Virus record (IMG/VR): IMGVR_UViG_2706796412_000001
Span: 1 to 64,000 of that record
Origin: Bixzunavirus tonenili
Lineage: Duplodnaviria > Heunggongvirae > Uroviricota > Caudoviricetes
Direction: 5' to 3' (one strand)
Length of the DNA: 64,000 bases
Shown here: piece by piece, positions 5,779 through 19,624 of the stretch
Position numbering within the stretch: the stretch's first letter is position 1
How the letters are laid out: the number at the start of each line of letters is the position of its first letter
The notes under the pieces: generated by a model
Databases searched by the model: none
The model's input: the letters and a program-made list of their open reading frames with translations, nothing else
Told to the model about the DNA's origin: nothing
Made by a program: the position numbers and the translations under genes

Positions 5779-5846
5779 CCCCGCAATCGAAGCTGAGGAA
5801 GCCGACCGGCGTGCTGCCCGATCGGCTCGAAGGAGTGAGACCTGAC

Positions 5847-6080
5847 ATGAGCATGCAACTGACCCTGCAGATCGACCGGGGCCGGATCGTCGAGGCCGAC
5901 GTCCGGCGCATCGTGTCCCGCTCGAACGGGATGCACGTCTACCGCTGGAGCTGCGGCGAACCCGAGGAGCATCGCCACCTGGGCGGCACCGTCGAACACT
6001 ACGAGCCCGACGGCGCGGTCGCGCTGGCCAAGAGGGTGCTCGATTCCTATCTCGACCAGGCGCAAGGGTTGCGACGATGA
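5847..6080 (+). CDS. hypothetical protein (77 aa)
   Basis: ATG 5847 preceded by AAGGAG; internal start of ORF 5448-6080. Confidence 0.4.
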   Translation: MSMQLTLQIDRGRIVEADVRRIVSRSNGMHVYRWSCGEPEEHRHLGGTVEHYEPDGAVALAKRVLDSYLDQAQGLRR

Positions 6081-6418
6081 TGAGCGACGAGTTGCGTGCT
6101 GTACTCACAGAAGCCCTCGTGGATGAGTTGTCCGGTTGGACCATCGGAGATGGCTATTACAAGTCGCAGGTGCCGTTTCACGAGGCCCGCGAAATGGCAG
6201 ACACCCTCGTCGGCATTCTGCTGTCTCTTCCGGGTGTGGCGGTAATCCAACTGCCCAAACCCGACGAACTGCGCTATGGATGGTGCTTGCAGGTCGAACC
6301 CAGCGGCATTATCCGCGACCTGGGGCCTATGGACTCATACACAGCGGAGGACGCACGCGGATTCGCAGGGGCACTGGTCGCTGCTGCTGCGGTTGTAGCC
6401 GAGGGGGAAGACAAGTGA
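6077..6418 (+). CDS. hypothetical protein (113 aa)
   Basis: ATGA overlap. Confidence 0.4.
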   Translation: MMSDELRAVLTEALVDELSGWTIGDGYYKSQVPFHEAREMADTLVGILLSLPGVAVIQLPKPDELRYGWCLQVEPSGIIRDLGPMDSYTAEDARGFAGALVAAAAVVAEGEDK

Positions 6419-6846
6419 GTGATGTTGTGGAGCGCGCGAAAGCAGCACTGGAAGCCCTGGGTGATAGAGGGCCGTGGACTATCGACTCCGAAGACGGCGA
6501 GCCGATTATTCACGAAGCTCATCACTACGACTCGATGGACGAATGGTACGACGTGAACGGGGCGAACGGCGGGTGGGTGGCGCACTGCGAAGACCTCCCG
6601 GTGGCCGAGTTCATTGCTTCTGCGCGTTCGTTGGTCCCCGAGTTGATCGCCGAAGTCGAGAAGTGGCGGGCCGCTGCGGTCTACGCCCATGACGACAACG
6701 GGGCACTCCAAGCGATGAAGGCTGAGCGGGACCATCTCGCCGAAATCGTTGAGCGGGTCGGTGAAGTCGTGGACAGCTACAAGCTCATCGAGGACGTACA
6801 GATCCTCGCCATCATCAACCCGAACGGGGGCCGCGATGAGGGGTGA
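6415..6846 (+). CDS. hypothetical acidic protein (143 aa)
   Basis: GTG 6415 overlapping upstream stop (GTGA). Confidence 0.4.
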   Translation: MSDVVERAKAALEALGDRGPWTIDSEDGEPIIHEAHHYDSMDEWYDVNGANGGWVAHCEDLPVAEFIASARSLVPELIAEVEKWRAAAVYAHDDNGALQAMKAERDHLAEIVERVGEVVDSYKLIEDVQILAIINPNGGRDEG

Positions 6847-6881
6847 GTTTGCTGCGGTTGTGGCTGCAGGGGAGGAACACC

Positions 6882-7316
6882 ATGGCTGACATCACTGCCC
6901 GAATCGCCGACATCCTCGAATCCCGAGGACTTGTGCAGCATGCTCAGATCCGCGCCGCCATCGCTGAAGCCCTCGTGGAGGAATTGGGCCTGGAAGTGGA
7001 GTGGCGGGCTGTCTGCCCCACAACCGTTTTTCCTGCCGAGGACCGTGCGGTGGCTCAGGGGTTGGTGGACATGTATCGGCGAGGGCGGGTCGAGTCTCGG
7101 ATTGTCGCGCAGTGGGCTGCAGGGGAAGGAAGCGCGGCTGGCGATCCGAGATCTGTGGCATTCGAAGCGTTAATGGGCGCTGCGGAAGACCGTGCCGTTC
7201 AATGTGTTCGCTGCGGTAACGCTGCCTCGCGGCACGGTGAGCGCCCACAGGATAGTCCACCCGGTTGCGGATGGACGTATTCAATGGTCGTCCGGGCTGC
7301 AGGGGAGGAAGCGTGA
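6882..7316 (+). CDS. hypothetical protein (144 aa)
   Basis: ATG 6882 after GGGGAGGA RBS. Confidence 0.4.
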   Translation: MADITARIADILESRGLVQHAQIRAAIAEALVEELGLEVEWRAVCPTTVFPAEDRAVAQGLVDMYRRGRVESRIVAQWAAGEGSAAGDPRSVAFEALMGAAEDRAVQCVRCGNAASRHGERPQDSPPGCGWTYSMVVRAAGEEA

Positions 7317-7645
7317 GCAGGGACTTCTGGTGGGGCATGTTCGTCATTCCCGCAGCTGCCCTCGCCGTTGCCGGTGTCCTGGTCGCGATCATGGCTGTCA
7401 TCTGGGCCTCGTCGAGGTGGGGAGGCGACGAGTACAAGCTGTGGCCGAAACAGTGGGGCCAGCGTGAGTCCATCGTGACCGTCGTCGCTACCGCCAAATC
7501 AGTGCGCTACCTGTGGATTCCCGGATGGCACATCGTCATCTGCCGAACAACAATGGCTACCCGAGAGAGTCGTCCGGAATGGCAGCGGCGACTGCGTGTC
7601 CAGCACGCCATCGGTGCCGCAATCAGGGCTGAGGAGACCGAGTGA
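7313..7645 (+). CDS. membrane-anchored hypothetical protein (110 aa)
   Basis: GTG 7313 after AGGGGAGGAA; N-terminal TM helix. Confidence 0.4.
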   Translation: MSRDFWWGMFVIPAAALAVAGVLVAIMAVIWASSRWGGDEYKLWPKQWGQRESIVTVVATAKSVRYLWIPGWHIVICRTTMATRESRPEWQRRLRVQHAIGAAIRAEETE

Positions 7646-8109
7646 TGTCTGATCCCACCTGCGTGTTCTGCCCGGACAACTGGGACAACCTCGACATCCT
7701 GCATGAGCACACGATCATCGAGAGCAGGACGCACAGCCGGGTGCCGAGTGTGCCCATCATCCAGTTCGTGCGTCCACTCAACCCGGTGACCGAGGGCCAC
7801 CTGCTGGTGATTCATCGCGAGCACACCGACAACGCCGCCGACGGGCTGAAGGGGCCGACATTCGCCAGCGAGTGCATGCACTTTGCCGCAGGCTATGTGC
7901 GCAAGAAGGGCATTCAGGCCAACATCATCACCAGCATCGGCCCGGCGGCCACCCAGACGGTGATGCATACCCATTTGCACATCGTGCCGCGCACCGAGGG
8001 CGACAAGCTGCTGCTGCCCTGGACGCTGCAGCAGCTGCGCGAGAATCGGCAGCGTCAGGCCAAAGAGTGGCTGAGGCAGTACGACGACTGGCCTGATGAG
8101 AACCTCTGA
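7642..8109 (+). CDS. HIT-family (histidine triad) nucleotide hydrolase
   Basis: 155 aa; histidine-triad motif HTHLHIVPR near C-terminus. Confidence 0.6.
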   Translation: MMSDPTCVFCPDNWDNLDILHEHTIIESRTHSRVPSVPIIQFVRPLNPVTEGHLLVIHREHTDNAADGLKGPTFASECMHFAAGYVRKKGIQANIITSIGPAATQTVMHTHLHIVPRTEGDKLLLPWTLQQLRENRQRQAKEWLRQYDDWPDENL

Positions 8110-8320
8110 CTTTCGGGACGATCCGAGGGCTGAGATCTACGGGCCGCTGTGGGAGGCCATGGCGGCTCAGGGCGTCGGTCCCCACATCGTGACCGCCAAG
8201 GATGGCCGAGCGGCGCTCTGCGGCGGTCCTGGGGCCTGTTACGTATGCGGCAAGGAGGCGTGATGGCCGCGACCGACTCACTGAAGGGGTGCGGGAGCTG
8301 AATTCCGACACGCCGAGGCA

Positions 8321-8357
8321 GGAATGAGCTAGTCCAACTGTAGGTTCACTACAGTAT
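8321..8357 (+). promoter_or_regulatory. promoter-like motif GGAATGAGCT..TACAGTATGAC
   Basis: variant of repeated motif; -10-like hexamer abuts ATG 8356, possible leaderless start (ATG 8356 or 8362). Confidence 0.35.
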
Positions 8358-8640
8358 GACTATGAGCTTGGACTTGAATTTTGTAGATCTGCCGGACAAG
8401 CAGGTGGGCGGTAGCCGCTCTGGTCCTCGTGCTCGTTTGAAAGCTCTTGCCGAAGCTCTGCGGGCCCAGCGCGGCAAGTGGGCCGAGTGGCCCTGGGCCA
8501 ACTCGTCGCCGTACGCGACCGGCAACCACATCAACCACGGGCGTTACGCCAGTCTGCCGCCGGAGGAATTCCAGGCCACGGTGCGCAACCGGGTGCTCTA
8601 CGTGCGCGCCCGCACCGAGGAAGAGATGAGGCAGTCATGA
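8356..8640 (+). CDS. hypothetical protein (94 aa)
   Basis: ORF immediately after promoter-like motif. Confidence 0.4.
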   Translation: MTMSLDLNFVDLPDKQVGGSRSGPRARLKALAEALRAQRGKWAEWPWANSSPYATGNHINHGRYASLPPEEFQATVRNRVLYVRARTEEEMRQS

Positions 8641-8876
8641 ACACCATCAGACTCCTGTTCCGAGGCATCATCGTCGGCCTATTCGGCATCGCGCTGGCCT
8701 TCAGCCTGCTCAGCATCTACGCCGCGCTGACCGACTACGATCTGCCGCGTCCCGGTGATTCTTCGGGCTCGGGCGTCGGCATCGTCCCCGGCGGCGGGCT
8801 CGGCATCGACATGGGCGGCGGCATCATGCTCGACCCGTCGTCCGGTCGGCTCACCCCGGGGGTTCCGCTGCCATGA
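8637..8876 (+). CDS. Gly-rich membrane protein (79 aa)
   Basis: ATGA overlap; TM helix then GxG repeats. Confidence 0.4.
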   Translation: MNTIRLLFRGIIVGLFGIALAFSLLSIYAALTDYDLPRPGDSSGSGVGIVPGGGLGIDMGGGIMLDPSSGRLTPGVPLP

Positions 8877-9052
8877 CCGCGTTGATCGCAGGCGTCGTCT
8901 TGATCGCGCTGGTGGCGGGCGCCCTCCTCGTCTTCACCTTTCGTGCCATGACCTTCGTCGAGTGGGCGACGGCCTGGGGCCTGTCTGTGCTGGGCACGGT
9001 GGTCATCGGCGTCGGCGCATTCCTGATCGGAAAAGGGATCGAACAGCTATGA
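8873..9052 (+). CDS. small membrane protein (59 aa)
   Basis: ATGA overlap; two hydrophobic segments. Confidence 0.3.
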   Translation: MTALIAGVVLIALVAGALLVFTFRAMTFVEWATAWGLSVLGTVVIGVGAFLIGKGIEQL

Positions 9053-9234
9053 ATCTCGACGACCTGGCCCCCACCGCCTACTGGACAAGTCAGACGCATG
9101 TCGGGAACGCCTCCGTCCCGATTCAGCGCGACTGCCCGCGCGCGTCCTGCGCGGCCATGGGCATCCAGTGCAAGGACCGTCGCGAGGGGCGCCCGTGCGA
9201 GCCCGGCTATCAGCCGCCCGACAAGAAGCCGTAG
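9049..9234 (+). CDS. hypothetical protein (61 aa)
   Basis: ATG overlapping upstream stop. Confidence 0.35.
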   Translation: MNLDDLAPTAYWTSQTHVGNASVPIQRDCPRASCAAMGIQCKDRREGRPCEPGYQPPDKKP

Positions 9235-9474
9235 TCATGGACGCCGACGAGCTGTGTCGTTTCCGGCGTCGACGCAGCAGCCACCACACCGCCTGGCAGC
9301 ATCCCCGCACCAGCTGGCGGCAGCCCGCCTGGCCGCCTCCTCGCCCACACGTTGACGAAAGCACGCCCCAAGAGGAAATAAAACAACCTATAGTATCGTT
9401 ACAGAAGGTGTAGTAAACTCCCAGGTATGGGGAGCAAAACACACCCACACACACCCACAGAAAGGCACACACAC

Positions 9475-9759
9475 ATGAAAAGCGCTTTGGTGGCCGTCGT
9501 GGCCGCACCCGTCATCACCATCTCCGGTCTGTTCTTCGCCGCCCCGGCGCTGGCCGGAGGCTTGCAGTCCGACGTGCTGTGTTCGTCGAACGTCGCCTAC
9601 CGCAACTCGCCCGCCCACGCCAAGGAGTGCAAGGACATCTCCATCGGTTCGCACGGCGGCGGCGGCGGCTGGGTCGATTCCGACGGCGACGGCATCGGCG
9701 ATAAGGTCGACCGGCATCCCGACGACGCTTCCAACGGTGGTGGTGACGGCGGCGAGTGA
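9475..9759 (+). CDS. secreted Gly/Asp-rich protein (94 aa)
   Basis: signal peptide MKSALVAVVAAPVITISGLFFAAPALA; AGAAAGG RBS. Confidence 0.45.
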   Translation: MKSALVAVVAAPVITISGLFFAAPALAGGLQSDVLCSSNVAYRNSPAHAKECKDISIGSHGGGGGWVDSDGDGIGDKVDRHPDDASNGGGDGGE

Positions 9760-9879
9760 ATTTGCTGGACTCGGGCCTGGATTGATTCCCGGCCCGAGCC
9801 CGTTGTCCAGCCACCTGCATCACGCGGCGGCATGACCACTGCGCATGTGTTTGCTGCGCGATCCACGAGAGGACCGGAT

Positions 9880-10275
9880 ATGGAACCATATGAACACTAC
9901 GTCGCCACCGAGGATCTGCTCGTCGAGGGCAGACGCGTGGTCGCCCAGATCAGCGACGTCAACGACGATCGCGCGATCACGCGCAAGCTGCTTGCCGAGG
10001 TCACGGCGGTGGACGGAGAGGGTGCCGAGAAGCTACAGCGCGAGGTCGCTCTCCTCACCGAGCGGATGGACGAGCTGGGCAAGAAGGCCATGGGTATCTG
10101 GGCTCAGGCCCAGGTGCACGCCGCGCTGGCCCGAGTTCCCTCTGATGTTGTCAGCCGCGCCCGGGTGTATCAGTACCGGCAGAGCCAGTACCAGCCCTCC
10201 CGAACGACCGCGCTCGACAAGACCGCCATCCCACGCTACGAGACCTTCAGTGTCGGCGAGGAGGACAGCAACTAG
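9880..10275 (+). CDS. hypothetical protein (131 aa)
   Basis: ATG 9880 after GAGAGGA. Confidence 0.45.
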   Translation: MEPYEHYVATEDLLVEGRRVVAQISDVNDDRAITRKLLAEVTAVDGEGAEKLQREVALLTERMDELGKKAMGIWAQAQVHAALARVPSDVVSRARVYQYRQSQYQPSRTTALDKTAIPRYETFSVGEEDSN

Positions 10276-10475
10276 TGAGCTGGCACCTGACTTCCAAGGG
10301 CATCAAGCGCGTTCGCACCAGCTGGCACGTCGTCGGCGCCGATCCGACCCCCGACGGCTACCGCGACCACCTGCTCTACCGGGGCACCTCGCGCTGGCAG
10401 GCCTTCAAGGCGGTGCGGGCCGCTCTCAAGGAGGACATGACCGTCACCATCACCCCTCATCTCGTCACCAAGTAG
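10275..10475 (+). CDS. hypothetical protein (66 aa)
   Basis: GTG overlapping upstream stop. Confidence 0.35.
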   Translation: MSWHLTSKGIKRVRTSWHVVGADPTPDGYRDHLLYRGTSRWQAFKAVRAALKEDMTVTITPHLVTK

Positions 10476-10504
10476 CACCCCTCCCTCTACAGAAAGAGAT
10501 CCCC

Positions 10505-11449
10505 ATGGCAATGCTTGCCACTGTCGTACTGGCCCTGCTGGCCCTTGTCGCCATCGGAGCCGTCATCATTCTGCTGCTCACCAACGACAAAGACACCTGG
10601 GCCGGTTCGTTTCTCACCGCCGCTGGCGCCCTGGTGCTGTTCCTGATCGTCGGCTTCTTCGCCACCTTCACCGTGGTCTCGACCCGCAACATCGGCGTGG
10701 TCACCACCTTCGGTCGTCCGGTCGGCACTTTGAGCAACGGCCCGCACTTTGTCTGGCCCTGGCAGAGCGTCGAGGAACTCGACGGCGCCATCCAGATCGA
10801 TTGGCACAAGGACAACGATCCCAACGGGGACAACCATGACGGCGCGATCGTGGTCCGCTTGGCCAACAACTCCAACGCCTGGGCCGACACCTCGGTGAGC
10901 TGGGAGATGAAGCAGGACAAGGCCGACGAGCTGTTCCTGCAGTACAAGACGTTTGACAACATCCGGACCAACCTGGTCACCCGCAACCTGCAGACCGCGA
11001 TGAACGAGGTCTTCGCCACCTATAACCCGCTGGGTCAGATCAAGACCGTTCAAACTCCTGAGGGCCCGAAGACCGAGATCGAGCCGGTGACCGAGTCGCA
11101 GCTGCCCAAGCTGGCCACCCAGGTCCGCGACATCATGCAGGACAAGGTCGGCGACTACGTCTCGATCAAGGAGGTCCAGATCCCCACCATCGCCTTCGAC
11201 GGCAACACCCAGCAGCGCATCGACGAACTCAACCAGCAGAAGGCCGCGACAGCGGTGGCCATCGAGAAGCAGGCCACGGCCAGCGCCGAGTCCGAGGCCA
11301 ACGCTCAGATCGCCGCCTCGATCAACAAGGACCCCAACGTCCTGGTCAACAAGTGCCTCGACATCGTGCGCGAGAAGGGCGGCAACGTGCTGGGCTGCTG
11401 GCCGGGCACCAACGTCGTGCCGACCGTCCCGGCCAACCCGCAGGGGTGA
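10505..11449 (+). CDS. SPFH/band-7 (stomatin/prohibitin-like) membrane protein
   Basis: 314 aa; N-terminal TM helices, SPFH core NIGVVTTFGRPVGTLSNGPHFVWPWQSVEELDG, C-terminal Ala/Gln coiled coil. Confidence 0.65.
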   Translation: MAMLATVVLALLALVAIGAVIILLLTNDKDTWAGSFLTAAGALVLFLIVGFFATFTVVSTRNIGVVTTFGRPVGTLSNGPHFVWPWQSVEELDGAIQIDWHKDNDPNGDNHDGAIVVRLANNSNAWADTSVSWEMKQDKADELFLQYKTFDNIRTNLVTRNLQTAMNEVFATYNPLGQIKTVQTPEGPKTEIEPVTESQLPKLATQVRDIMQDKVGDYVSIKEVQIPTIAFDGNTQQRIDELNQQKAATAVAIEKQATASAESEANAQIAASINKDPNVLVNKCLDIVREKGGNVLGCWPGTNVVPTVPANPQG

Positions 11450-11451
11450 TC

Positions 11452-11805
11452 ATGGGTATCTCCAGGGGTGCGGTCGTCCAGATCGATGGCGCGTTCAGTA
11501 TCGATCATCTGTCGGCTCTGGTGGCCCGGATGAAGATGTTGGGCGTCGGCACGACGACGCCGGTCGAACTCTGGGGTCAGGGCGATCAGTTAGTCCTGGT
11601 CCCGGCGTTCGTCGAGATGCATCTGCGTGAGCAGGGTTGGACGCTGTTGGTCGGCGTGCATGGTCCCGTCGGCGTCAGAGCTGCGGACCGGGCCAAGGCC
11701 AAAGCCAGGGACTCGAAGAAGGCCACGACCACGCGTCGTGGCCCGATCGGCTGGTTCCAGCGACACTGGAGCGGCGAGGCCTTCAAGGAGAAAGAGTCGT
11801 CATGA
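11452..11805 (+). CDS. hypothetical protein (117 aa)
   Basis: ATG 2 nt after SPFH stop. Confidence 0.4.
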   Translation: MGISRGAVVQIDGAFSIDHLSALVARMKMLGVGTTTPVELWGQGDQLVLVPAFVEMHLREQGWTLLVGVHGPVGVRAADRAKAKARDSKKATTTRRGPIGWFQRHWSGEAFKEKESS

Positions 11806-11933
11806 CCTGCCCGAACTGCGACACCGAGCTGACCGACACCACCGAGGACACCATCATCGACGGCCAGGAGGCCAAGATGCACGTCGTTGCCTGCCCCAAC
11901 GGCTGCTTCCGCAGCGCCACACCCGCCCAGTAG
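11802..11933 (+). CDS. zinc-ribbon small protein (43 aa)
   Basis: CPNC..x19..CPNGC; ATGA overlap. Confidence 0.35.
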   Translation: MTCPNCDTELTDTTEDTIIDGQEAKMHVVACPNGCFRSATPAQ

Positions 11934-12006
11934 CAAACAACCACCCGGACGAGGATGCCCAGGTCGCTGGGCAACTCGCTCCAGCCAAGGAAGAAGGACA
12001 GCTAAC

Positions 12007-12357
12007 ATGAGCACGCCCGCGCAGTACCGCAAGAAGCCCATCGTCGTCGAGGCGTTGCAGTGGACCGGCGACAACGCCGAGGACCTGGCCGAGTGGGCCA
12101 CGATGCCCTGCCACGGCGCCATCCCCGGCTCCGAGCTGATCTGCTTCGTGCCGATGGACGACGACGAGATCTTCGACACGATCGACTCGACGCGCTATGA
12201 CGAATTTCGCGCCGTGGGCGCCACGGCGGCACTGTGGGTCAACGCCAACCAGAGTTGGCTGCCGATCAAGGACGGGGAGTGGGTCATCAAGGACCGGCTG
12301 GGCTTCTATCCGATCGAGGACAGCATGTTCGCCGAGAACTACGAGCCGGTCCCGTGA
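12007..12357 (+). CDS. hypothetical protein (116 aa)
   Basis: ATG 12007 after GGAAGAAGGA. Confidence 0.45.
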   Translation: MSTPAQYRKKPIVVEALQWTGDNAEDLAEWATMPCHGAIPGSELICFVPMDDDEIFDTIDSTRYDEFRAVGATAALWVNANQSWLPIKDGEWVIKDRLGFYPIEDSMFAENYEPVP

Positions 12358-12821
12358 GCACCAAGCTCTACGTCTACCGCGTCCCCAAGAGCCAGTGGTG
12401 GGACTTCTACGCCGCCGTCCGTCGGGTCTATCTCGACGAACATCTGATCGCCAGGGCGGTACGCGGGCTGGCCGAAAGAAAGGCTCCGCACCGGGACGTC
12501 CGCCGGATCATCAACGAGTCGGTCCCCGAGTACGAGGTGGAGCTGCAGCTCTTCGACGACGGCGAGCACTGGATCGTCCGCCCGCTGGAGAGCGGTTGGT
12601 TCTTCACGAACCAGCACCACCGCTGGCTGGAGTTCGGCCTGGTCCCGGTCTTCTACGACGACCGCGCTGACGTCCCGCCCGAGCACGAGGCCAACAAGGT
12701 CGTCGCCGATTGGGTCGACAAGCAGATCGAGACGCATCGCTACCTGATGGCGCCGGTGCTCAACCGTGACGCCTTCTTCAGCATCTGGATCGATGCGCTT
12801 TATCCCAAAGCTCCGGAATGA
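12354..12821 (+). CDS. hypothetical protein (155 aa)
   Basis: GTGA overlap; stop codon is the TGA inside downstream GGAATGA promoter box. Confidence 0.45.
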   Translation: MSTKLYVYRVPKSQWWDFYAAVRRVYLDEHLIARAVRGLAERKAPHRDVRRIINESVPEYEVELQLFDDGEHWIVRPLESGWFFTNQHHRWLEFGLVPVFYDDRADVPPEHEANKVVADWVDKQIETHRYLMAPVLNRDAFFSIWIDALYPKAPE

Positions 12822-12849
12822 ATCCCCATCTCAGTGCGTTATACTGGGT
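12815..12849 (+). promoter_or_regulatory. promoter-like motif GGAATGAATCCCCAT..GTTATACTGGGT plus CACTCACCCAGGAG leader
   Basis: consensus copy of repeated motif 39 nt upstream of ATG 12888. Confidence 0.5.
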
Positions 12850-12887
12850 ATAGCACTCACGCAGAAACACTCACCCAGGAGTCCGAC

Positions 12888-13178
12888 ATGACCGCCACCG
12901 CCCCCTACAGCGTCATCTGGTTCGAAGGCACCCCGGATGCGCCGGTCAAGAAGACCCGCAATGGTTTCGCCACCTTCGACGCCGCCGAGGTCTGGGCGCA
13001 GACCCGCATCAACGGCACGACCCTCCCCAACGTCGACCTGGACCCGCACCGCAAGGAGTGGACCAACCAGCACGGCATGACCTTCACCCTGGTCGCCGGG
13101 AAGGTCTACGAGACCGGCGTCTTCGACGGCCCGAACCGCTTCGCCTTCATCGGCCTGGACAAGAAGGCGGTCTCCTGA
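12888..13178 (+). CDS. hypothetical protein (96 aa)
   Basis: first gene after consensus promoter and leader. Confidence 0.45.
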   Translation: MTATAPYSVIWFEGTPDAPVKKTRNGFATFDAAEVWAQTRINGTTLPNVDLDPHRKEWTNQHGMTFTLVAGKVYETGVFDGPNRFAFIGLDKKAVS

Positions 13179-13179
13179 C

Positions 13180-13341
13180 ATGCTGCCGCACATCGGAGAT
13201 TTCCCGCCCAACTGGTGGCCAGGCGCCGACCGGATGGACGAGGCTGCCAGCTGGACCTACAACCGGATCGGCTACGCCCTGACCGACGTCCGCAAGGACC
13301 TCAAGCGCTGGGACCAGACCGGCGAGTGGCTGGAGGACTGA
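13180..13341 (+). CDS. hypothetical protein (53 aa)
   Basis: short ORF, TGATG overlap downstream. Confidence 0.3.
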   Translation: MLPHIGDFPPNWWPGADRMDEAASWTYNRIGYALTDVRKDLKRWDQTGEWLED

Positions 13342-13559
13342 TGCCCCCGACATCCGACTTGCGTCCCGACTTGCGCATGGGACGGCCTCCCAAGGGCACC
13401 GTCAGCTCGGGCAAGACGTCCGCCCTGACTGTCCGTATCCCCGAGTCCGTTCGTGTGGAGATGAAGCGCCGCGTCCGGCTCGGACTGCACAAGTCGGAGT
13501 CTGAGCTGGTGCGGGTCGCACTCGTCGAATACTTCGAAAATCATCCGCTGGAGGATTGA
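13341..13559 (+). CDS. ribbon-helix-helix (CopG/Arc-like) DNA-binding protein
   Basis: 72 aa; SALTVRIPESVRVEMKRR beta-strand then helices, SESELVRVALVEYFE. Confidence 0.5.
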   Translation: MPPTSDLRPDLRMGRPPKGTVSSGKTSALTVRIPESVRVEMKRRVRLGLHKSESELVRVALVEYFENHPLED

Positions 13560-13720
13560 TGCCCCGGACACCCGACTTCCGCGACCTTGTGATCGCCGAC
13601 CTCTCCCAGTACCTGCGTGAGCGCTGTGGCATGAGCGAGGAGACGGCGCGGAAGGAGGCCAACCGGCTGCTCGACCGGGCCGTGAAAGATTTTGAGAAAT
13701 CTTTGGAATCCGGGGAATGA
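13559..13720 (+). CDS. hypothetical protein (53 aa), N-terminus similar to RHH gene
   Basis: MPRTPDFRDL versus MPPTSDLRPDL; stop inside downstream GGAATGA box. Confidence 0.3.
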   Translation: MPRTPDFRDLVIADLSQYLRERCGMSEETARKEANRLLDRAVKDFEKSLESGE

Positions 13721-13748
13721 TCTCTCATACCGCTCCGTTATACTAGGT
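13712..13748 (+). promoter_or_regulatory. promoter-like motif GGGGAATGATCTCTCAT..GTTATACTAGGT
   Basis: repeated motif and ACACTCACCCAAGGAG leader upstream of ATG 13785. Confidence 0.5.
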
Positions 13749-13784
13749 GTAAGACACAGACACACTCACCCAAGGAGCCCCGAA

Positions 13785-14114
13785 ATGAATGCCACCGCCA
13801 TCGCCCAGACCACCACCGAGCTGACCGTTGCCGACTTCGCCGAGTCGTTCATCAGCCCGCGCCGCACGCGGATCTACTTCGCCAACACCGCGCTGCGCTC
13901 GCGCTCGGAGGGCGGCAACGGTCGCTACCAGATCGAGCAGTTCGGTGCCCGGCTGTGGGTCCTGACCCACCACCAGGTGATCAAGGGCGGCGAGAGCAGC
14001 GTCGTGCGCCGGATCGGCCAGTTCCCCTCGAAGGCTGCGGCCATCCGCGAGGCCCAGCATGACGTGGCCGACCTGGAGGCCAACGTCCTGGATCACATCC
14101 TGCGGGCTCACTGA
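13785..14114 (+). CDS. hypothetical protein (109 aa)
   Basis: ORF after promoter motif. Confidence 0.45.
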   Translation: MNATAIAQTTTELTVADFAESFISPRRTRIYFANTALRSRSEGGNGRYQIEQFGARLWVLTHHQVIKGGESSVVRRIGQFPSKAAAIREAQHDVADLEANVLDHILRAH

Positions 14115-14117
14115 CCC

Positions 14118-14153
14118 GGGAATGAATCCCCATAACGCGCCGTTATACTGAGT
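14118..14153 (+). promoter_or_regulatory. promoter-like motif GGGAATGAATCCCCAT..GTTATACTGAGT
   Basis: consensus copy with CACTCACCCACACAGGAG leader, upstream of ATG 14187. Confidence 0.5.
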
Positions 14154-14186
14154 ACACCACCACCACTCACCCACACAGGAGCCGAA

Positions 14187-14450
14187 ATGTCCAAGGTCAT
14201 CGTCAACAAGGTCGCCATCGCCCGCTTCCTGCGCGAGCGCGGCATCCCGGCCCGCGAGGCCATCTTCGCCTCGGTCATCCTGGGCAACGCGGGCATCGAT
14301 CTGCCCGAGATCGCCGACGCCTTCGACGTCGCCGTCGAGAACCCTCCTCGCTTCCAGGCGGTCTACGACGCCCTGGAGGCCGCGCACGTCCAGTCCAAGT
14401 CCCCGACCGCGCTGGCCGACGAACTGGCGCTGAATCGAGTGGAGGCCTGA
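14187..14450 (+). CDS. hypothetical protein (87 aa)
   Basis: ORF after promoter motif. Confidence 0.45.
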   Translation: MSKVIVNKVAIARFLRERGIPAREAIFASVILGNAGIDLPEIADAFDVAVENPPRFQAVYDALEAAHVQSKSPTALADELALNRVEA

Positions 14451-14452
14451 TC

Positions 14453-14713
14453 ATGGAGATCACCTTCGCCGCCGAGTGGCGCAAGCCGCACGACTTCACC
14501 GACGACCTGGTCCTGGAGATCGGCCCCTACACCGCTCGGGTGCACTTCGCCGGAGACGTGTGGGAGTCCGAGGTCGAGGTCGACGACGGTCGCTCTGTCG
14601 GCATCCGGATTTGGGAACCCACCCGTGAGCAGGCCAAGGCCCGTGCCGAGGAGACCATCCGCAGGCATGTCGAAATCCGGAACGCCCGCGAGAAGGAGTC
14701 CAGCGATGCCTAA
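14453..14713 (+). CDS. hypothetical protein (86 aa)
   Basis: ORF 2 nt after upstream stop. Confidence 0.4.
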   Translation: MEITFAAEWRKPHDFTDDLVLEIGPYTARVHFAGDVWESEVEVDDGRSVGIRIWEPTREQAKARAEETIRRHVEIRNAREKESSDA

Positions 14714-14996
14714 CCAGCTCCTGCGCAACCGCATCGTCGTGGGCGGGCCAGGCCAGCTGCTCGGCGCTATCGACGTCTCGACCGCCGACGCCAACAAGAT
14801 GGTCTTCCGGCCTGAGACCTGCCTGTTCTGGGGCCTGGGTAGCTCCTTGGTCGTCGAACGGTATAACACCTGGGACGAGGCGATTTCCGGACATAGCCGC
14901 TGGTACAACAACCCGGCGCGCTGCGTCGAACGCATCCTGGCCTACAACGCCGAGCGTGACCGGGTCTACCAAGAGGAATACGGCAATGTCCAGTGA
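14706..14996 (+). CDS. hypothetical protein (96 aa)
   Basis: ATG 14706 overlapping upstream end by 8 nt. Confidence 0.4.
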   Translation: MPNQLLRNRIVVGGPGQLLGAIDVSTADANKMVFRPETCLFWGLGSSLVVERYNTWDEAISGHSRWYNNPARCVERILAYNAERDRVYQEEYGNVQ

Positions 14997-15234
14997 ATAC
15001 AGCTGTCTGGTGCCGGTGATGAACTTCGCCATCCGGTGCTCGGAAACGAACTCTTACGACGGCGAGGACGAGAACTGCGAGGCGTCCTGGTGCGCCGACC
15101 CGCCGGTGATTCGGCACGCCTCCAGCGAGGAAGCCATGGCCGAGGACCTGGAACGCGACGGCTGGCTGGTGCTGCGCGAGCGGCACGGCTGGAGCCTGAC
15201 TTGTCCGAACTGCCGCAAGCGAGAGGGATTGTGA
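14986..15234 (+). CDS. Cys-rich hypothetical protein (82 aa)
   Basis: CxxC..CxxC pattern (CSETNSYDGEDENCEASWC ... CPNC). Confidence 0.4.
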   Translation: MSSEYSCLVPVMNFAIRCSETNSYDGEDENCEASWCADPPVIRHASSEEAMAEDLERDGWLVLRERHGWSLTCPNCRKREGL

Positions 15235-15361
15235 TGGACAGGATGCACCGGCTCTGTCACCGGTTACTCCCTGACCACTCTGTCCGAAAGTCCGAGATGC
15301 ACTCCACTTGGACGGACTACTGGGGTGAGGCCGGGAGGAAGCTCTCCTTCTTCATCTGCAC

Positions 15362-15568
15362 GTGTGGGGCGGTGTGGCCGCGATGATGGACGGGATGCAT
15401 ATCGGGCGCAGCTGGGTCGACCACCCTGTGGAAGACGCCTGTCCATGCCCGAAGGCGCCGTGCGGCCTGGTCATCGCCAGCCAAGCTGTCTGCGATGAGC
15501 ACCGGCTCGACGGCGGCAAGACCATGCGTCAGGGCCACTCGGCCAACCGTTGCCCTGGGGAGGCCTGA
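15362..15568 (+). CDS. hypothetical protein (68 aa)
   Basis: ORF with TGATG overlap downstream; start uncertain (15362 or 15383). Confidence 0.3.
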   Translation: MWGGVAAMMDGMHIGRSWVDHPVEDACPCPKAPCGLVIASQAVCDEHRLDGGKTMRQGHSANRCPGEA

Positions 15569-15810
15569 TGTCCGATCCGGCAATCGAAGCGGTGGAGCGA
15601 TCGCTGCCGTACGAGTACGAGGCCGACGAGGTCATGGCCGACGTCGCGGTGCGTGTCGCCCGTGAGGCGTTGAAGCCGGTTCGCGAGTGGCACACGAAGA
15701 TGGCCGCAGCGTACGCGTTGGACGACCGTCCAGAGGGAGTGCTCGTAGAGGCGGTTCTTCAGGAACTCGCGAAGCTGATCTACACCACCGAGGAGCTTGG
15801 CAATGCCTGA
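15568..15810 (+). CDS. hypothetical protein (80 aa), paralog A
   Basis: C-terminus ...LAKLIYTTEELGNA; tandem paralog of next gene. Confidence 0.4.
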   Translation: MSDPAIEAVERSLPYEYEADEVMADVAVRVAREALKPVREWHTKMAAAYALDDRPEGVLVEAVLQELAKLIYTTEELGNA

Positions 15811-16036
15811 TCCAGCAGTAGAAGCCGCACACCGGGCGATGCCGGAACTTAGCAGTGCCGCTCCGACTGAGGACATGATCGCCGCTGCCCGTGAGATGGC
15901 CAAGCCGATACGCGCGGCGTACACGCGCTGGGAGAGCGCTTTCGGCGGACGCCGTGGAGATGTGCCGGAAATGGTTCAGGTCCTTCTGGAGGAACTTGCA
16001 CCACTGATCTACAGCACCGAGGAGCTGGACCGATGA
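15803..16036 (+). CDS. hypothetical protein (77 aa), paralog B
   Basis: GAGGAG RBS; C-terminus ...LAPLIYSTEELDR matches upstream gene. Confidence 0.4.
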   Translation: MPDPAVEAAHRAMPELSSAAPTEDMIAAAREMAKPIRAAYTRWESAFGGRRGDVPEMVQVLLEELAPLIYSTEELDR

Positions 16037-16419
16037 GCGACATTGTTGAGCGGACAAAGGCCGACCAGGCCCGCATCGACCGCATCAGTGAAATCCTGCA
16101 CAAGCATCAGTTCGACTGGAGCAACAGCGGTACCAGATGTATCGGGAGCGGTTGCGACTGGCGGGGCGGCTACCGTCCACAGCACCACGAACATGTGGCC
16201 GAGCTGATCGACGCTGCGTTGTATCCCTGCATCGAGACCGCTGAACAACTCGAAGCGCTGCCAGACGGTGCGGTCGTTGAGGTAGTCAAAGGTGTGCCCG
16301 AGGTCAAGTGGGATGGCTGCTGGTACGCGATGACGTCCGACGCATTCGAACCTGACCTTCCGGCCTGCGTGCTCTACACCCCGACCGGTGAGACGCGGAT
16401 CACACCGACGCGGGAATGA
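16033..16419 (+). CDS. hypothetical protein (128 aa)
   Basis: ATGA overlap; stop inside GGAATGA box. Confidence 0.4.
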   Translation: MSDIVERTKADQARIDRISEILHKHQFDWSNSGTRCIGSGCDWRGGYRPQHHEHVAELIDAALYPCIETAEQLEALPDGAVVEVVKGVPEVKWDGCWYAMTSDAFEPDLPACVLYTPTGETRITPTRE

Positions 16420-16440
16420 TCCTGGGGTATATCAGGTTGA
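16412..16440 (+). promoter_or_regulatory. promoter-like motif (variant) GGGAATGATCCTGGGGTATATCAGG
   Basis: GGGAATGA box plus TATAT element and ACACTCACCCAGGAG leader, upstream of ATG 16480. Confidence 0.4.
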
Positions 16441-16479
16441 AATGAGTGTAAGCGACACACACTCACCCAGGAGCCCGAA

Positions 16480-16908
16480 ATGTCCAGCATCCGCAAGGTC
16501 CAGGCCACCAATCCCCACACCGGCGTCGTCACCACCCGCACCAGCAAGAGCAAGGTCTACACCCACGCGCTGGTCGTGCATCATCCGGCCCAGGAGGCCT
16601 ACACCATTCCCGCTGGCACCTACGTCGTCCCGAAGAAGCGCATCCGGGGCCGCACCATCGCCTCCTACACCACCAACATCAGCTCCGACATCGTCTACGA
16701 GGCCCGCGAGGCCAGCTGGAGTCTGCTGAGCTTCCACACCAGCTACGACGCCGCCGCCAAGGCCGGACGCAGCGAGGTCTCGCTGGCCGTGACCCGAAAC
16801 GACGAGGACAAGGCTGTCTTCGGTGAGCACGTCGCGAACAGGACCCCCTTTGTCGACAACTTCGAGGTCGTCGAGGTCGAGGTCCTCGACGAGGGCTTCA
16901 ACGCCTGA
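16480..16908 (+). CDS. hypothetical protein (142 aa)
   Basis: ORF after promoter and leader. Confidence 0.5.
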   Translation: MSSIRKVQATNPHTGVVTTRTSKSKVYTHALVVHHPAQEAYTIPAGTYVVPKKRIRGRTIASYTTNISSDIVYEAREASWSLLSFHTSYDAAAKAGRSEVSLAVTRNDEDKAVFGEHVANRTPFVDNFEVVEVEVLDEGFNA

Positions 16909-16926
16909 GACGCGGATCACACGTCC

Positions 16927-16964
16927 CGGGGAATGAATCCCCATACCGCCGCGTTATACTCAGT
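16927..16964 (+). promoter_or_regulatory. promoter-like motif GGGGAATGAATCCCCAT..GTTATACTCAGT
   Basis: consensus copy, CACTCACTCACTCAGGAG leader, upstream of ATG 16997. Confidence 0.5.
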
Positions 16965-16996
16965 GTAAGACACACTCACTCACTCAGGAGTCCACG

Positions 16997-17278
16997 ATGA
17001 TCACTCTCGCCGCCGCCCCCACCAGCATCAACCTCTCCGACTACAACGAGGTCCGCCTCGTCGGCAACGTCCGCACCGGCGACGTCCTGAGCCGCGACGG
17101 TCACCTGCTGGTGGTCACCAAGGTGGTCCGCACCGCCAAGACCATCGAGATCCGCGCCGAGAACGCCAACGGCGAGGCCGGGTACGGCAAGCGCCTGTGG
17201 ACCAGCAAGCACCGCAGCTCCACCCCGGTCTCCCGGGCCCTCGGCGACACCACTCACATCTTCCGGAAGGCGGTCTGA
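16997..17278 (+). CDS. hypothetical protein (93 aa)
   Basis: ORF after promoter and leader. Confidence 0.45.
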   Translation: MITLAAAPTSINLSDYNEVRLVGNVRTGDVLSRDGHLLVVTKVVRTAKTIEIRAENANGEAGYGKRLWTSKHRSSTPVSRALGDTTHIFRKAV

Positions 17279-17280
17279 CC

Positions 17281-17487
17281 ATGGACGGCTTCCGCCTGAT
17301 CGGCCACCTCGAAGACGAGGTCCACCGCGTGACCAATCGCCAGGCCGTCATCGCCGATCGACTGGCCCGGCTCGCCGAGGCCCGCAGGGCCAAGACCGAG
17401 TCCACGCCCGAACGCAAGGCGCAACGCGCCAAAGAGAAGGCCGCCCGCCAGCAGACCAAACGACGCAGGAAGCAGGGACGACGATGA
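17281..17487 (+). CDS. hypothetical protein with Lys/Arg-rich tail (68 aa)
   Basis: ATG 17281 3 nt after upstream stop. Confidence 0.4.
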   Translation: MDGFRLIGHLEDEVHRVTNRQAVIADRLARLAEARRAKTESTPERKAQRAKEKAARQQTKRRRKQGRR

Positions 17488-17756
17488 GCACTATCAAGAC
17501 CGACACCGAACTGGCCCAGACGATCGACGCGTTCGCCGCGAACGCCGTCACGGCGTCCGACACTCTCGACAATGTCCTGGAGACCCTCGATGGCCTGCTC
17601 TATCAGGCCGAGTACGTCAGCGAGACCGGTTTGCCGATCAACCGCAACCAGGCTGCCGGTGCCGTCGTCGAGGTCCAGGAGAGCTTGATCCGGCTGCGCC
17701 AGGCGATGGAGCAGCTGCGCGGGGAGCTGCGGTCCCACCTCGGAGATCAGTCCTGA
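17484..17756 (+). CDS. hypothetical protein (90 aa)
   Basis: ATGA overlap. Confidence 0.4.
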   Translation: MSTIKTDTELAQTIDAFAANAVTASDTLDNVLETLDGLLYQAEYVSETGLPINRNQAAGAVVEVQESLIRLRQAMEQLRGELRSHLGDQS

Positions 17757-17935
17757 TGGCCCTCAAGAACCTCCAGCACTACAGTCCGGAGGAGTTGCGC
17801 CTGATTCTCGACGTACTCGTCGACGTCCACGAGTACGGCCAGCAGAATGACCGCGAGGAGATCATGGGCTACCTGACCCAGCGCAAGCGCACCGTGCGCA
17901 ACCGGCTCAAGACCGTAGGGAATCAACTGAGATAG
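17756..17935 (+). CDS. hypothetical protein (59 aa)
   Basis: TGATG overlap; 3' end overlaps next promoter motif. Confidence 0.3.
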   Translation: MALKNLQHYSPEELRLILDVLVDVHEYGQQNDREEIMGYLTQRKRTVRNRLKTVGNQLR

Positions 17936-17952
17936 CCTCGTGTTATACTCAG
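17917..17952 (+). promoter_or_regulatory. promoter-like motif GGGAATCAACTGAGAT..GTTATACTCAGT
   Basis: variant copy; leader CACACCACCACACAAACACCCACAGGAG. Confidence 0.45.
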
Positions 17953-17983
17953 TGCACACCACCACACAAACACCCACAGGAGA

Positions 17984-18229
17984 ATGACAATGGCTCTCCC
18001 CGCTCTTACCTGGCGCACCGAGACCAACGGGCGCAAGAAGGTCGCCACCACCCATCTGCGCACCACCTACACCCTGGAGAAGATCGACGGCACCTGGGTC
18101 GCCCGGGTGACCGTCCCCCAGACCCGCAACCGCATCGGTGGCGGCACCGAGACCCTGGTGTCCGGCGTGACCTTCGCCCAGGCCCGCGCCGCTGCCCTGG
18201 ACGACTACAAGCGCAACGGAGGTAACTGA
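17984..18229 (+). CDS. hypothetical protein (79-81 aa)
   Basis: ATG 17984 or 17990 after GGAGAA. Confidence 0.45.
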   Translation: MTMALPALTWRTETNGRKKVATTHLRTTYTLEKIDGTWVARVTVPQTRNRIGGGTETLVSGVTFAQARAAALDDYKRNGGN

Positions 18230-18230
18230 G

Positions 18231-18476
18231 ATGGCCACTGTCGTCGCGGCCTGGCGCCCCCTGAAGTTGAGTACCGGCTACATCCTGGAGACTCCGCGCG
18301 CGACGTTCTGGGTCGAGAAGATTAGCGCTCCCGGCGAGCGTTCCTTCTGGCAGATGAAGCTTCGCCGCAAGAACACGGACGACCGCACCGTCCTCGTGTG
18401 GCAGCACGATCTCACGGCCAGGTCCCTCAAGGCTGAGGCCGAACGACTGGACGCCGACTGGACCGAGGAGAACTGA
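18231..18476 (+). CDS. hypothetical protein (81 aa)
   Basis: ORF 2 nt after upstream stop. Confidence 0.4.
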   Translation: MATVVAAWRPLKLSTGYILETPRATFWVEKISAPGERSFWQMKLRRKNTDDRTVLVWQHDLTARSLKAEAERLDADWTEEN

Positions 18477-18477
18477 G

Positions 18478-18864
18478 ATGGGCAAGATCACCGAGAGCCC
18501 GCTGGGCATCTACCTCAAGCTTGGTGACACGACCGCCGAGGACGTCTTCTACCACGACCTGGGTCTGGCGATCCCACAGAAGCACGTCGGCAAGCCCAAG
18601 CACGACTGGGTCGAGGTGTCCCGGGGACACGTCTTCCGGCCTCGCATCGTCACAGCGCCCCGGGGCGAGGACTGGGTGTCGGTCGGCGGTGTCGAGCACA
18701 CCCGTGCCGATGTCACCATCACCACCGACGAGTTGGCCCGCCAGCTCCGCCGGGTGGCGTACGTCTTGATCGACGAGGCCGACCGCCAGCGCAAGGAGAA
18801 GGACTACTTCGCCGAACAGCTCGCGGCCAAGAGTTGCGAGGTCACCATGCCCGAGGAGAACTGA
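18478..18864 (+). CDS. hypothetical protein (128 aa)
   Basis: ORF 2 nt after upstream stop. Confidence 0.45.
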   Translation: MGKITESPLGIYLKLGDTTAEDVFYHDLGLAIPQKHVGKPKHDWVEVSRGHVFRPRIVTAPRGEDWVSVGGVEHTRADVTITTDELARQLRRVAYVLIDEADRQRKEKDYFAEQLAAKSCEVTMPEEN

Positions 18865-18865
18865 G

Positions 18866-19081
18866 ATGCCCAAGCTGTCCGAGCTGTCCAACAAATCGGT
18901 CTACCATGCCGCCGAGGTCGCGCTGAAGCAATACCGGCTGCTGACTGAGGAGGGATCTTCCTCGCCGCACCTCTGGGAGGCCTACCGCGTCAGCGCCGAG
19001 GAGTGGACCGCGCTGGCCCTGGAGCGGCTGCGCGCGGCCAAGGACGGCGGCACGATCGATCTACCCACCAAGGAGGCGTGA
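18866..19081 (+). CDS. hypothetical protein (71 aa)
   Basis: ORF 2 nt after upstream stop. Confidence 0.4.
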   Translation: MPKLSELSNKSVYHAAEVALKQYRLLTEEGSSSPHLWEAYRVSAEEWTALALERLRAAKDGGTIDLPTKEA

Positions 19082-19407
19082 TGCCCAACACCAAGATGAC
19101 CATGATGCGGGGTGGCAAGACCGTCTTCAGCTACTCGGTCAGCATTCCGGGCACCTGGGCTCGAACCGACGACCAGCTACGTGCGGCCTGGAACCGGGCC
19201 GCCGTCGCTCTCAACGAGCTGGCCACCCTGATCGACGAGCGCACCAATGACAAGCACCTGCCGCTGCCGGTGCACTATCGCGACAACGGCGAGCTGTGCG
19301 AGTACAGCGAGAGCCACGACATGGCCTCCGGCTGTCCGCGCGGCTGTGCGAGCGCCAGGACCCACTACGCCAACGATGGCCACCTGATGTGCGCCGAGGA
19401 GGACTGA
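19081..19407 (+). CDS. hypothetical protein (108 aa)
   Basis: TGATG overlap. Confidence 0.4.
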   Translation: MPNTKMTMMRGGKTVFSYSVSIPGTWARTDDQLRAAWNRAAVALNELATLIDERTNDKHLPLPVHYRDNGELCEYSESHDMASGCPRGCASARTHYANDGHLMCAEED

Positions 19408-19557
19408 TGCCGAGTTCCCGCATTTACGTCCGGGCGGTTGCAGTGATGAGGACCGCGACCTGCGGATGGTGACGAACCAGATGCTCCTCGACGCCCTGAA
19501 GGTCATCGAAGCGCCGATCTGCCAGCGGCTGGAGGACGAGTTCAACTCATAGCGTTC

Positions 19558-19580: not shown

Positions 19581-19624
19581 CGTTACACATCACGTACCAC
19601 CCACCACACACGCAGGAGCACCCA

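Follow-up and report, generated by a model that had tools for sequence, protein, structure and literature searches.

The stretch of DNA analysed here, hereafter the window, is 100% identical to bases 1–64,000 of Mycobacterium phage Tonenili (NC_031080.1), a 160,985-bp myovirus of Cluster C1 (genus Bixzunavirus) whose host is M. smegmatis. All annotated genes of the window lie on the + strand, and a number of them are preceded by copies of a compact module: an upstream box of the type GGAATGA (the −35 box), a block related to GTTATACT that begins 16 nucleotides (nt) further on (the −10 block) and, in most copies, a leader rich in C and A that runs to GGAG and the ATG. Each module is almost certainly a promoter to which a translation leader is fused, and the conserved core resembles promoters read by SigH, a sigma factor of the extracytoplasmic function (ECF) class. 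The copies in the window are listed below, with the orthologous genes of the sister phage Myrna (Cluster C2) where these carry promoters of the type read by SigA, the housekeeping sigma factor.

3609–3680, + strand: module GGAATGA-N16-GCTATAGT before gp013; the sole copy without GTT (GCT at 3632)
8321–8355, + strand: promoter-only copy GGAATGA-N16-GTTCACTA; the ATG at 8356 sits 10 nt past GTT
9375–9489, + strand: weak copy GAAATAA-N16-GTTACAGA with a long CA leader, then gp030
12815–12887, + strand: full module before gp038 (ATG 12888), composed of GGAATGA at 12815–12821, GTTATACT at 12838–12845, the predicted +1 at 12850–12852, the CA-rich leader and GGAG; gp037 stops on the TGA of the box
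13714–13784, + strand: full module before gp042; the stop of gp041 is the box TGA; the Myrna orthologue, gp30, has a SigA-type promoter
14119–14186, + strand: full module before gp043
16413–16479, + strand: module GGAATGA-N16-GTTGAAAT before gp052; SigH core intact, SigA −10 poor; the stop of gp051 is the box TGA
16930–16996, + strand: full module before gp053
17919–17989, + strand: module GGAATCA..TGTTATACT before gp057; TAG of gp056 in the spacer; Myrna gp29 has a SigA promoter
19559–19624, + strand: module GGAATGG-N16-GTTACACA before gp063; in-register SigA −10 poor, TATAGT in the spacer
21290–21360, + strand: module GGAATGA-N16-GTTGTAGA before gp069; the Myrna orthologue, gp48, has a SigA promoter
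23917–23951, + strand: promoter copy GGAATGA-N16-GTTATAGT without CA leader, ahead of a candidate structured RNA
26127–26209, + strand: module GGAATTA-N16-GTTGTACG before gp083; the Myrna orthologue, gp67, has a SigA promoter
29464–29529, + strand: weak copy, GAAACAA with GTTATAGT, and leader before gp088; gp087 ends in the spacer
55249–55316, + strand: full module before gp244, within the structural-gene region
56575–56641, + strand: full module before gp242, immediately after the head fibre gene
61571–61639, + strand: module GGAATGA-N16-GTTGTACA before gp233

A promoter-plus-leader module reused at least 15 times had been proposed in a first-pass annotation of this DNA, and the census bears this out: 17 copies were found in the window, all facing genes, and 22 in the Tonenili genome, each co-oriented with its downstream gene. 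The window was scanned with a position weight matrix (PWM), the remaining Tonenili genome and most of Myrna by pattern search. At a threshold of at least 12 bits, the PWM identified 16 sites on the + strand of the window and none on the − strand; in all 16 the −10 block is intergenic and the next annotated start follows 66–115 nt downstream. Two of these sites, 9375 and 29464, were outside the training set and still scored 25.5 and 16.4 bits, and the promoter-only copy at 8321 completes the 17. Fixed patterns are also enriched in the window: GGGAATGAATCCCCAT with up to 3 mismatches matched 6 times (0.33 expected), GTTATACTNRGT with up to 1 mismatch 8 times (0.17 expected) and the two boxes combined (GGAATGA-N16-GTTATACT, at most 3 mismatches) 14 times, on the + strand only (0.29 expected). 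Five more copies lie outside the window, at 92–106 kb, among them a minus-strand copy that precedes the minus-strand gene gp200. No module copies were found at 112–161 kb of Tonenili.

The six copies first described as near-identical (before 12888, 13785, 14187, 16997, 55317 and 56642) have both boxes exact, and the variants reported before 3681, 16480, 17990, 19625, 21361, 26210 and 61640 are present. Three further variants were recovered in part. The copy before 8356 retains GGAATGA-N16-GTT and lacks TATACT; its mRNA is probably leaderless, since the ATG follows so closely on GTT. Those before 9490 and 29530 are recognisable by PWM, with a degraded −35 box (GAAATAA and GAAACAA, respectively). 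The gene starts first given as 9475, 17984 and 23952 differ from the annotated ones, 9490, 17990 and 24017, and position 23952 is better read as a putative transcription start than as a gene start. A spacer of 17–19 nt had been claimed; in fact the box-to-box spacing is identical in all 22 copies, with exactly 17 nt between the hexamer and GTT. The distance from GGAATGA to ATG is also narrow, at 66–73 nt in 13 of the 17 window copies. The upstream gene was said to end often on the stop codon inside GGAATGA: this is so at 12821, 13720 and 16419, where GenBank agrees, but "often" is too strong for three of 17 window copies. The upstream genes ending at 17935 and 29482 have a TAG stop inside the spacer. 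Fusion of coding end and promoter is occasional, and is to be expected where an open reading frame (ORF) meets a box with an in-frame TGA.

In order to define the conserved core, the 22 Tonenili copies were aligned, position 1 being the first G of GGAATGA. Within the −35 box G1, A3 and A4 occur in all 22 copies, T5 in 21, a purine at position 6 in 20 and G2 in 18. On the −10 side G24 and T26 occur in 22 copies and T25 and A29 in 21; GTT is complete in 21, with a pyrimidine before it in 15. Written out, the invariant core is GGAAT(G)-N17-GTT. Bases critical for SigA are kept less often, A−11 (position 27) in 16 of 22 and T−7 (position 31) in 14 of 22. An in-register TANNNT overlapping GTT (TATACT or TATAGT) is found in 13 copies, and the nine copies without it (e.g. 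GTTGAAAT, GTTACACA, GTTGTAGA, GTTGTACG and GTTGTACA) keep GGAAT and GTT. Exact matches to GGAAYR-N17-GTT number 13 in the window (1.06 expected), 12 of them on the + strand just upstream of + strand genes, and GGAAT-N18-GTT has 15 matches (0.64 expected). The thirteenth GGAAYR-N17-GTT match, at 1175–1200 on the − strand inside the nucleotidyltransferase gene gp003, fits the roughly one chance match expected.

The same pattern, GGAAYR-N17-GTT, is the M. tuberculosis SigH consensus obtained from ChIP-seq (chromatin immunoprecipitation sequencing) and 5′-RACE (rapid amplification of cDNA ends), with N17 in 19 of 25 promoters (PMC4803200). SigH promoters tolerate changes at −35 positions 2, 5 and 6, and at position 6 a purine is favoured by SigH and a pyrimidine by SigE (PMC4803200); variation among the phage copies falls at these tolerated positions. 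Related consensus sequences are GGGAAT(G/C)-16 nt-(C/G)GTTG for Streptomyces coelicolor SigR and gGGAAta...YGTTgaa for Corynebacterium glutamicum SigH (PMC3489674). In C. glutamicum and M. tuberculosis a T at −31 marks SigH-specific promoters, and SigE requires C (PMC10012870). A comparison of the −35 element with SigA and alternative sigma consensus sequences had been suggested in the first-pass annotation; the core equals the published SigH consensus, and the −35 box shows no likeness to TTGACA. The sigma-70 architecture proposed there, with GAATGA as −35 and TATACT as −10, is not supported in that form: a standard scan misses the copies, and A−11 or T−7 is lost in about one-third of them. 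A TTGACA/TATAAT scan of positions 3000–22000 gave 3 sites (2.1 expected), and the sole copy called was that at 3609 (ATGAAA-16-TATAGT). No TTGACA-like −35 hexamer was found 16–18 nt upstream, an element that mycobacterial SigA promoters often lack. There is also no clear pattern of compensation between the −35 box and a SigA −10: copies with GGAAT divide into 11 with TANNNT and 7 without, those lacking GGAAT into 2 and 2.

In sequence terms, the conserved core is indistinguishable from that of a SigH-type ECF promoter. We estimate at about 55% the probability that the copies are SigH-type promoters, read by host SigH or by a SigH-like ECF sigma factor. RNA polymerase carrying such a factor would bind GGAAT(G)-N17-GTT, and transcription would start about 10–12 nt past GTT, at a conserved pyrimidine–purine step (positions 36–38). 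The 13 copies with TANNNT may be dual SigA/SigH promoters, the other nine holding the SigH core only. Transcription, start positions and sigma usage at the modules are all things that we infer from the base sequence. The module is reused and faces genes and, as first suggested, one specialised sigma specificity appears to serve many small transcription units.

The module is shared by relatives, as the first-pass annotation implied that it should be. It was found in 203 phage records, all of them from Mycobacterium or Mycolicibacterium phages whose genomes are of C1 size (about 153–159 kb), and the listed records each contain 2–7 places detectable by BLAST. The first 32 kb of Dandelion (C1, about 90% identical here) include 13 copies. 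Across 11 orthologous Tonenili/Dandelion pairs, substitutions per site are 0.25 in the 8 nt upstream of the module, 0.205 in the spacer and about 0.2 in the leader, but 0.026 in the −35 box, 0/33 in GTT and 0.09 at positions 27–31. Both −35 box changes convert GGAATGA to GGAACAA, which is still GGAAYR. Two short boxes are therefore conserved at a fixed distance while the spacer is free to change, which argues for recognition by a protein and not for recent duplication. The annotated starts of Dandelion gp49 and gp50 (15659 and 16180) fall within the −10 block of a module, and the Tonenili orthologues start past the leader; the two Dandelion starts are probably mis-annotated, with ATGs predicted near 15701 and 16222. 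An exact 16-mer scan of IMG/VR returned one C1 genome and 12 single matches, probably chance, and was uninformative.

Comparison with Myrna revealed a different promoter class. GGAAYR-N17-GTT has no match in the 164.6 kb of Myrna, and in the 82 kb scanned 15 + strand intergenic sites match TTG[AC]NN-N16-18-TANNNT. Most of these sites are near-identical members of a family, TTGC(A/G)N-N17/18-TA(T/G)A(A/C/G)T with a TTCTAG spacer box, and at most of them the ATG lies exactly 7 nt past the −10, giving leaderless mRNAs. TTG[AC]NN-N16-18-TANNNT matches once in the Tonenili window (26116); within the first 32 kb of Myrna the + strand has 12 matches. Four genes that follow Tonenili copies have a detectable Myrna orthologue (Tonenili gp042, gp057, gp069 and gp083; Myrna gp30, gp29, gp48 and gp67, respectively), and for these genes and the structured RNA described below the two phages have promoters at corresponding positions, those of Tonenili being SigH-type and those of Myrna SigA-type. 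As the orthologous sites of Myrna are textbook promoters, the Tonenili sites are taken to be promoters as well.

The two promoter classes share more than position. Their −10 hexamers (TATAGT/TATACT) are homologous and can be aligned, and both have CA-rich leaders and a spacer element resembling CT(A/G)TAG. Myrna differs in its −35 element, TTGC(A/G)C, in having GCT or TGT before the hexamer and in its many leaderless units, whereas the C1 phage has GGAATGA and GTT; T is found at −13 in 21 of 22 Tonenili copies, and Myrna mostly has C. GGAAT and GTT are jointly present in C1 and jointly absent in C2, and therefore behave as a linked pair with a specificity of its own. The SigA-type site in the window, TTGCCT-N18-TAGAGT at 26116–26145 on the + strand, overlaps the 26127 copy and is kept in Dandelion at 24952. 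This overlap may represent a tandem or transitional arrangement of the two promoter classes.

The second part of the module is a leader of 30–35 nt, C/A-rich and G-poor (CACTCACCCA-like), followed by GGAG and ATG. Downstream of the motif C+A make up 73% and G 15%, against 53% and 31% in the window background. The leader had been called purine-poor and CA-rich; the latter is correct, the former is not, because the leader is rich in A, and it is better described as G/T-poor. Of the 11 + strand occurrences of CTCACCCA (the − strand has one), 10 are found at most 45 nt upstream of a start. A CAC(N)CAC, ACTCAC or CACCCA core is present in 15 of 17 leaders. Predicted folding of leader plus start region (about 49 nt) averages −4.0 kcal/mol, versus −9.5 kcal/mol at 108 other starts (45-nt windows), and such a near-unstructured leader would most likely keep the Shine-Dalgarno/ribosome-binding site open. 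The leader also occurs without a promoter, before 20263, 21859, 24404, 25468, 27515 and 28231, in agreement with the leader-only copies first noted before 25468, 27515 and 28231. The last of these is

28196–28230, + strand: leader-only copy cattCACTCACCCActcgaaGGAG before gp085

Since it is found without the promoter, and also behind Myrna SigA promoters, the leader is an independent translation-related element. Rfam has no match to it; in the window three tRNAs alone reach the gathering threshold. The leader cores ACTCACCC and TCACCCAC (e.g. 12867–12876 and 14166–14176) are complementary to GGGTGAGT and GTGGGTGA, both within a 40-nt stretch (nt 94–133) of mycobacterial 16S rRNA. Many genomes of Mycobacteriales contain that exact 40-mer, which in M. 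senegalense falls within the small-subunit rRNA. The complementarity may be coincidental.

The copy at 23917 is followed by a feature of another kind, which overlaps the annotated gp076 (24017–24280):

23952–24376, + strand: candidate structured non-coding RNA of about 420 nt

Downstream of it come a CA leader and the ATG of gp077 at 24404. The region is 97.2% identical between Tonenili and Dandelion, against roughly 86–90% in its surroundings, and at least 95% identical in 203 C1 records; a 1-nt indel relative to Dandelion would break the annotated gp076 ORF. In the predicted fold a long helix joins the 5′ and 3′ ends (minimum free energy −183.8 kcal/mol, z = −3.6). The Myrna homologue (about 3212–3640) lies behind a SigA promoter, inside a 703-nt unannotated gap. 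A pairwise Tonenili/Myrna consensus fold contains 75 pairs, of which 20 are changed on both sides yet kept; these include 8 compensatory pairs in the 27-pair closing helix, where no pair is broken. No Rfam family matches 23952–24376. The region is probably a structured non-coding RNA, or a giant 5′ untranslated region of gp077, and the protein annotation of gp076 is probably wrong. The closing helix begins about 10 nt past the predicted transcription start, which fits the assignment of 23917 as a promoter.

Several considerations weigh against reading the copies as SigH-type promoters. The best of them have a perfect TATACT after a G at −14, with T at −15 in 8 of 22, and TATACT with G at −14 could suffice for SigA alone in mycobacteria. 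Three copies whose in-register −10 is poor have a TATAGT in the spacer, 11 nt further upstream. Because the −10 hexamer and the SigA −10 of Myrna are homologous, GGAATGA could instead be the site of an unknown phage factor. SigH is sequestered by the redox-sensitive anti-sigma factor RshA (MSMEG_1915), whose hold is loosened by PknB phosphorylation (PMC7491931); as RshA normally holds SigH inactive, a lytic phage would need SigH to be activated during infection. The consensus sequences used for comparison are those of M. tuberculosis, C. glutamicum and S. coelicolor, not of M. smegmatis. The searchable literature contains no transcript 5′ ends, chromatin immunoprecipitation or genetics for any Cluster C phage. 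Nor does it describe Cluster C promoters or a link between SigH and mycobacteriophages, although subscription reviews (Hatfull 2012, 2014, 2018) may hold one.

The alternative that fares best is that the copies are SigA promoters, with TATACT or TATAGT and the G at −14 as the true element and the likeness to SigH promoters a coincidence. GGAATGA would then be an unusual −35, or the site of a phage activator or sigma appropriator comparable to MotA/AsiA of T4. This would account for the in-register TANNNT of 13 copies, for the invariant G at −14 and for the alignment of the hexamer with the Myrna SigA −10 at orthologous sites, and early mycobacteriophage promoters are mostly SigA-like (PMC9262239). 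However, the nine copies without TANNNT keep GGAAT and GTT and are still conserved in Dandelion, and SigA recognition leaves unexplained why T stands at −13 in nearly every Tonenili copy and C in most Myrna sites. Moreover, the −35 box is unlike TTGACA, the sigma-70 scan misses the copies, and the match to GGAAYR-N17-GTT spans the box, the spacing and the tolerated positions. We regard this reading as the main rival, less probable than SigH-type recognition.

The copies might instead be chiefly recombination substrates for the swapping of promoter–gene cassettes, as in the promoter-early stem-loop (PeSL) cassettes of T4-type phages. Two Dandelion-specific genes, gp40 and gp53, each have a copy on either side; the inserted gp037 of Tonenili ends in a −35 box; and in EasyJones two copies, 2000 nt apart, bracket a segment with a Cluster A immunity repressor. 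A 29-bp direct repeat flanks a 1.35-kb insertion in LRRHood (PMC3029335); this repeat is GTCATTCAGGCTGACATCCAGAGGAATTA, and its last seven bases are the −35 box GGAATTA. Modules are touched by five of the 19 indel junctions between Tonenili and Dandelion; random positions would give about 1.7, but under a gene-junction null the expectation rises to 15% (about 2.9) and the excess is not significant (P = 0.15). That selection acts on two short boxes whose spacing is fixed, and leaves the spacer free, is a sign of protein recognition, not of homology length. We consider recombination improbable as the main function and reject it on the gene-junction result; a recombination role is plausible as a by-product. 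At the LRRHood locus (4043–4098 and 5399–5446) the first repeat is followed by an inverted, minus-strand promoter core (4098–4073) that would fire antisense into gene 42.

It is similarly improbable that the upstream box is mainly an operator comparable to the Cluster A stoperators, a GGGGA-atgaa-TCCCC partial palindrome for a dimeric phage regulator that would govern all the units as a repressor or timing switch: in the strongest copies GGGGAATGAATCCCC forms an inverted repeat of 5+5, and small helix-turn-helix proteins such as gp073 (HTH_3) are encoded nearby, but the palindrome is missing from many conserved copies (GGAATGATCCTGGGG, GGAATGGATGCGG, GGAATTAAAGTC), the left half GGAATGA alone is conserved, and the footprint is asymmetric, with GTT at a fixed distance. 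The palindromic operator was rejected on the lack of conservation of its right half-site. Cluster C phages are lytic and have neither repressor nor integrase (PMC3029335).

If the copies are SigH-type promoters, the sigma factor could come from the phage or from the host. No sigma factor is present in the Tonenili annotation. A Pfam scan of 97 hypothetical proteins, each 100 aa or longer, revealed no Sigma70_r2 among the 25 of 34 matched families listed, and one weak match to Sigma70_r4_2 (E = 0.0011), whose owner was not identified among the 25 proteins scanned individually. Local phmmer searches with RpoE and SigW gave nothing significant. E. coli RpoE, used as query in six-frame tblastn against all 50,697 phage records (E ≤ 0.01), matched ECF sigma factors of Rhizobium, Streptomyces, crAss-like and other phages and no Mycobacterium phage. 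With a SigR-type query (E ≤ 1) there was likewise no Mycobacterium phage among the named organism groups, nine minor groups being not itemised. A phage-encoded sigma factor was rejected as far as factors recognisable by Pfam, phmmer and tblastn go. The simplest reading is that host SigH or an M. smegmatis paralogue would read these promoters. The Pfam scan of the Tonenili proteome also revealed an Hfq-like protein (PF23874) and a homologue of the Thoeris inhibitor Tad4.

A Ser/Thr kinase gene outside the window (Tonenili 155176–156249) has counterparts of at least 80% identity in 203 records of Mycobacterium/Mycolicibacterium phages and is not found in Myrna. This number equals that of the records with the promoter module, a correlation only, as many genes are C1-specific. 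The kinase is a speculative candidate for releasing SigH from RshA. A wider scenario, which we put forward as tentative, is that C1 phages (about 200 genomes, including Bxz1 and I3) have rewired some 20 early or accessory units from the housekeeping sigma factor, on which Myrna still relies at these sites, to host SigH, the ECF factor of redox and heat stress, so that the phage would carry a SigH regulon of its own, and that the kinase may act on RshA as host PknB does.

Among known systems, the closest to the Tonenili modules are the SigH/SigR promoters (ECF group 4). Both have the −35 GGAAT(G) with a purine as its sixth base, (Y)GTT after a gap of 17 nt (at times 18 in the SigH/SigR class) and an A three bases past GTT, and both tolerate variation at the same positions. 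The differences lie in use: Tonenili has about 22 cassettes before small genes of unknown function in a lytic phage, not before redox or heat-stress genes, and most of them overlap a SigA-type −10. The leader recalls the start-associated sequences (SAS) of Cluster K phages, reportedly described by Pope et al. 2011 as a short conserved asymmetric motif that lies just upstream of many starts and includes the ribosome-binding site. The CACTCACCCA..GGAG leader, which also occurs apart from the promoter, is comparable in this; its sequence is different, it is a biased unstructured stretch where SAS is a fixed 13-mer, and it is not known to be linked to a tRNA or translation factor. The PeSL cassettes are said by Arbiol et al. 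2010 to be repeated early-promoter stem-loop modules of T4-type phages. As in PeSL, the modules of Tonenili bracket small variable ORFs and coincide with some indel boundaries; unlike PeSL, they have no consistent stem-loop partner and a different sigma specificity, and the breakpoint enrichment is no more than suggestive.

Two further arrangements were observed among the structural genes. At 55145–56030, gp244 (55317–55949) forms a moron-like unit among the head genes, in the order GC hairpin plus T-run terminator (aaggccccctcttcggagggggttttctt), module 55249, gene, and a near-identical terminator hairpin at about 55960–55990. A second motif, CCTCGAATAG(A/G)TGA, is found on the + strand at 31224–31237, 43366–43379, 54740–54753, 56004–56017, 57056–57069 and 61786–61799, 15–35 nt upstream of the structural or late genes starting at 31259, 43411, 54767, 56031, 57084 and 61821. 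A weaker variant precedes 45377, and a similar sequence, CCTGAATGGGTA, is present in Myrna. With up to 3 mismatches the motif has 18 matches (6.4 expected). The motif may be a late promoter or a signal for the translation of late genes.

For the large Cluster C myoviruses, among them the generalized transducing phages Bxz1 and I3, transcription is essentially uncharted. The present analysis bears on annotation, in that some gene starts have been set within promoters and one "protein gene" probably encodes a structured RNA. The pair C1 and C2 offers a natural experiment in the switching of promoter class at orthologous sites. If the copies are indeed read by SigH, compact and graded SigH-responsive promoter–leader cassettes would become available for mycobacterial genetics, expression of phage accessory genes would be coupled to the redox or heat state of the host, and sigH or rshA host mutants would be predicted to alter the outcome of infection.

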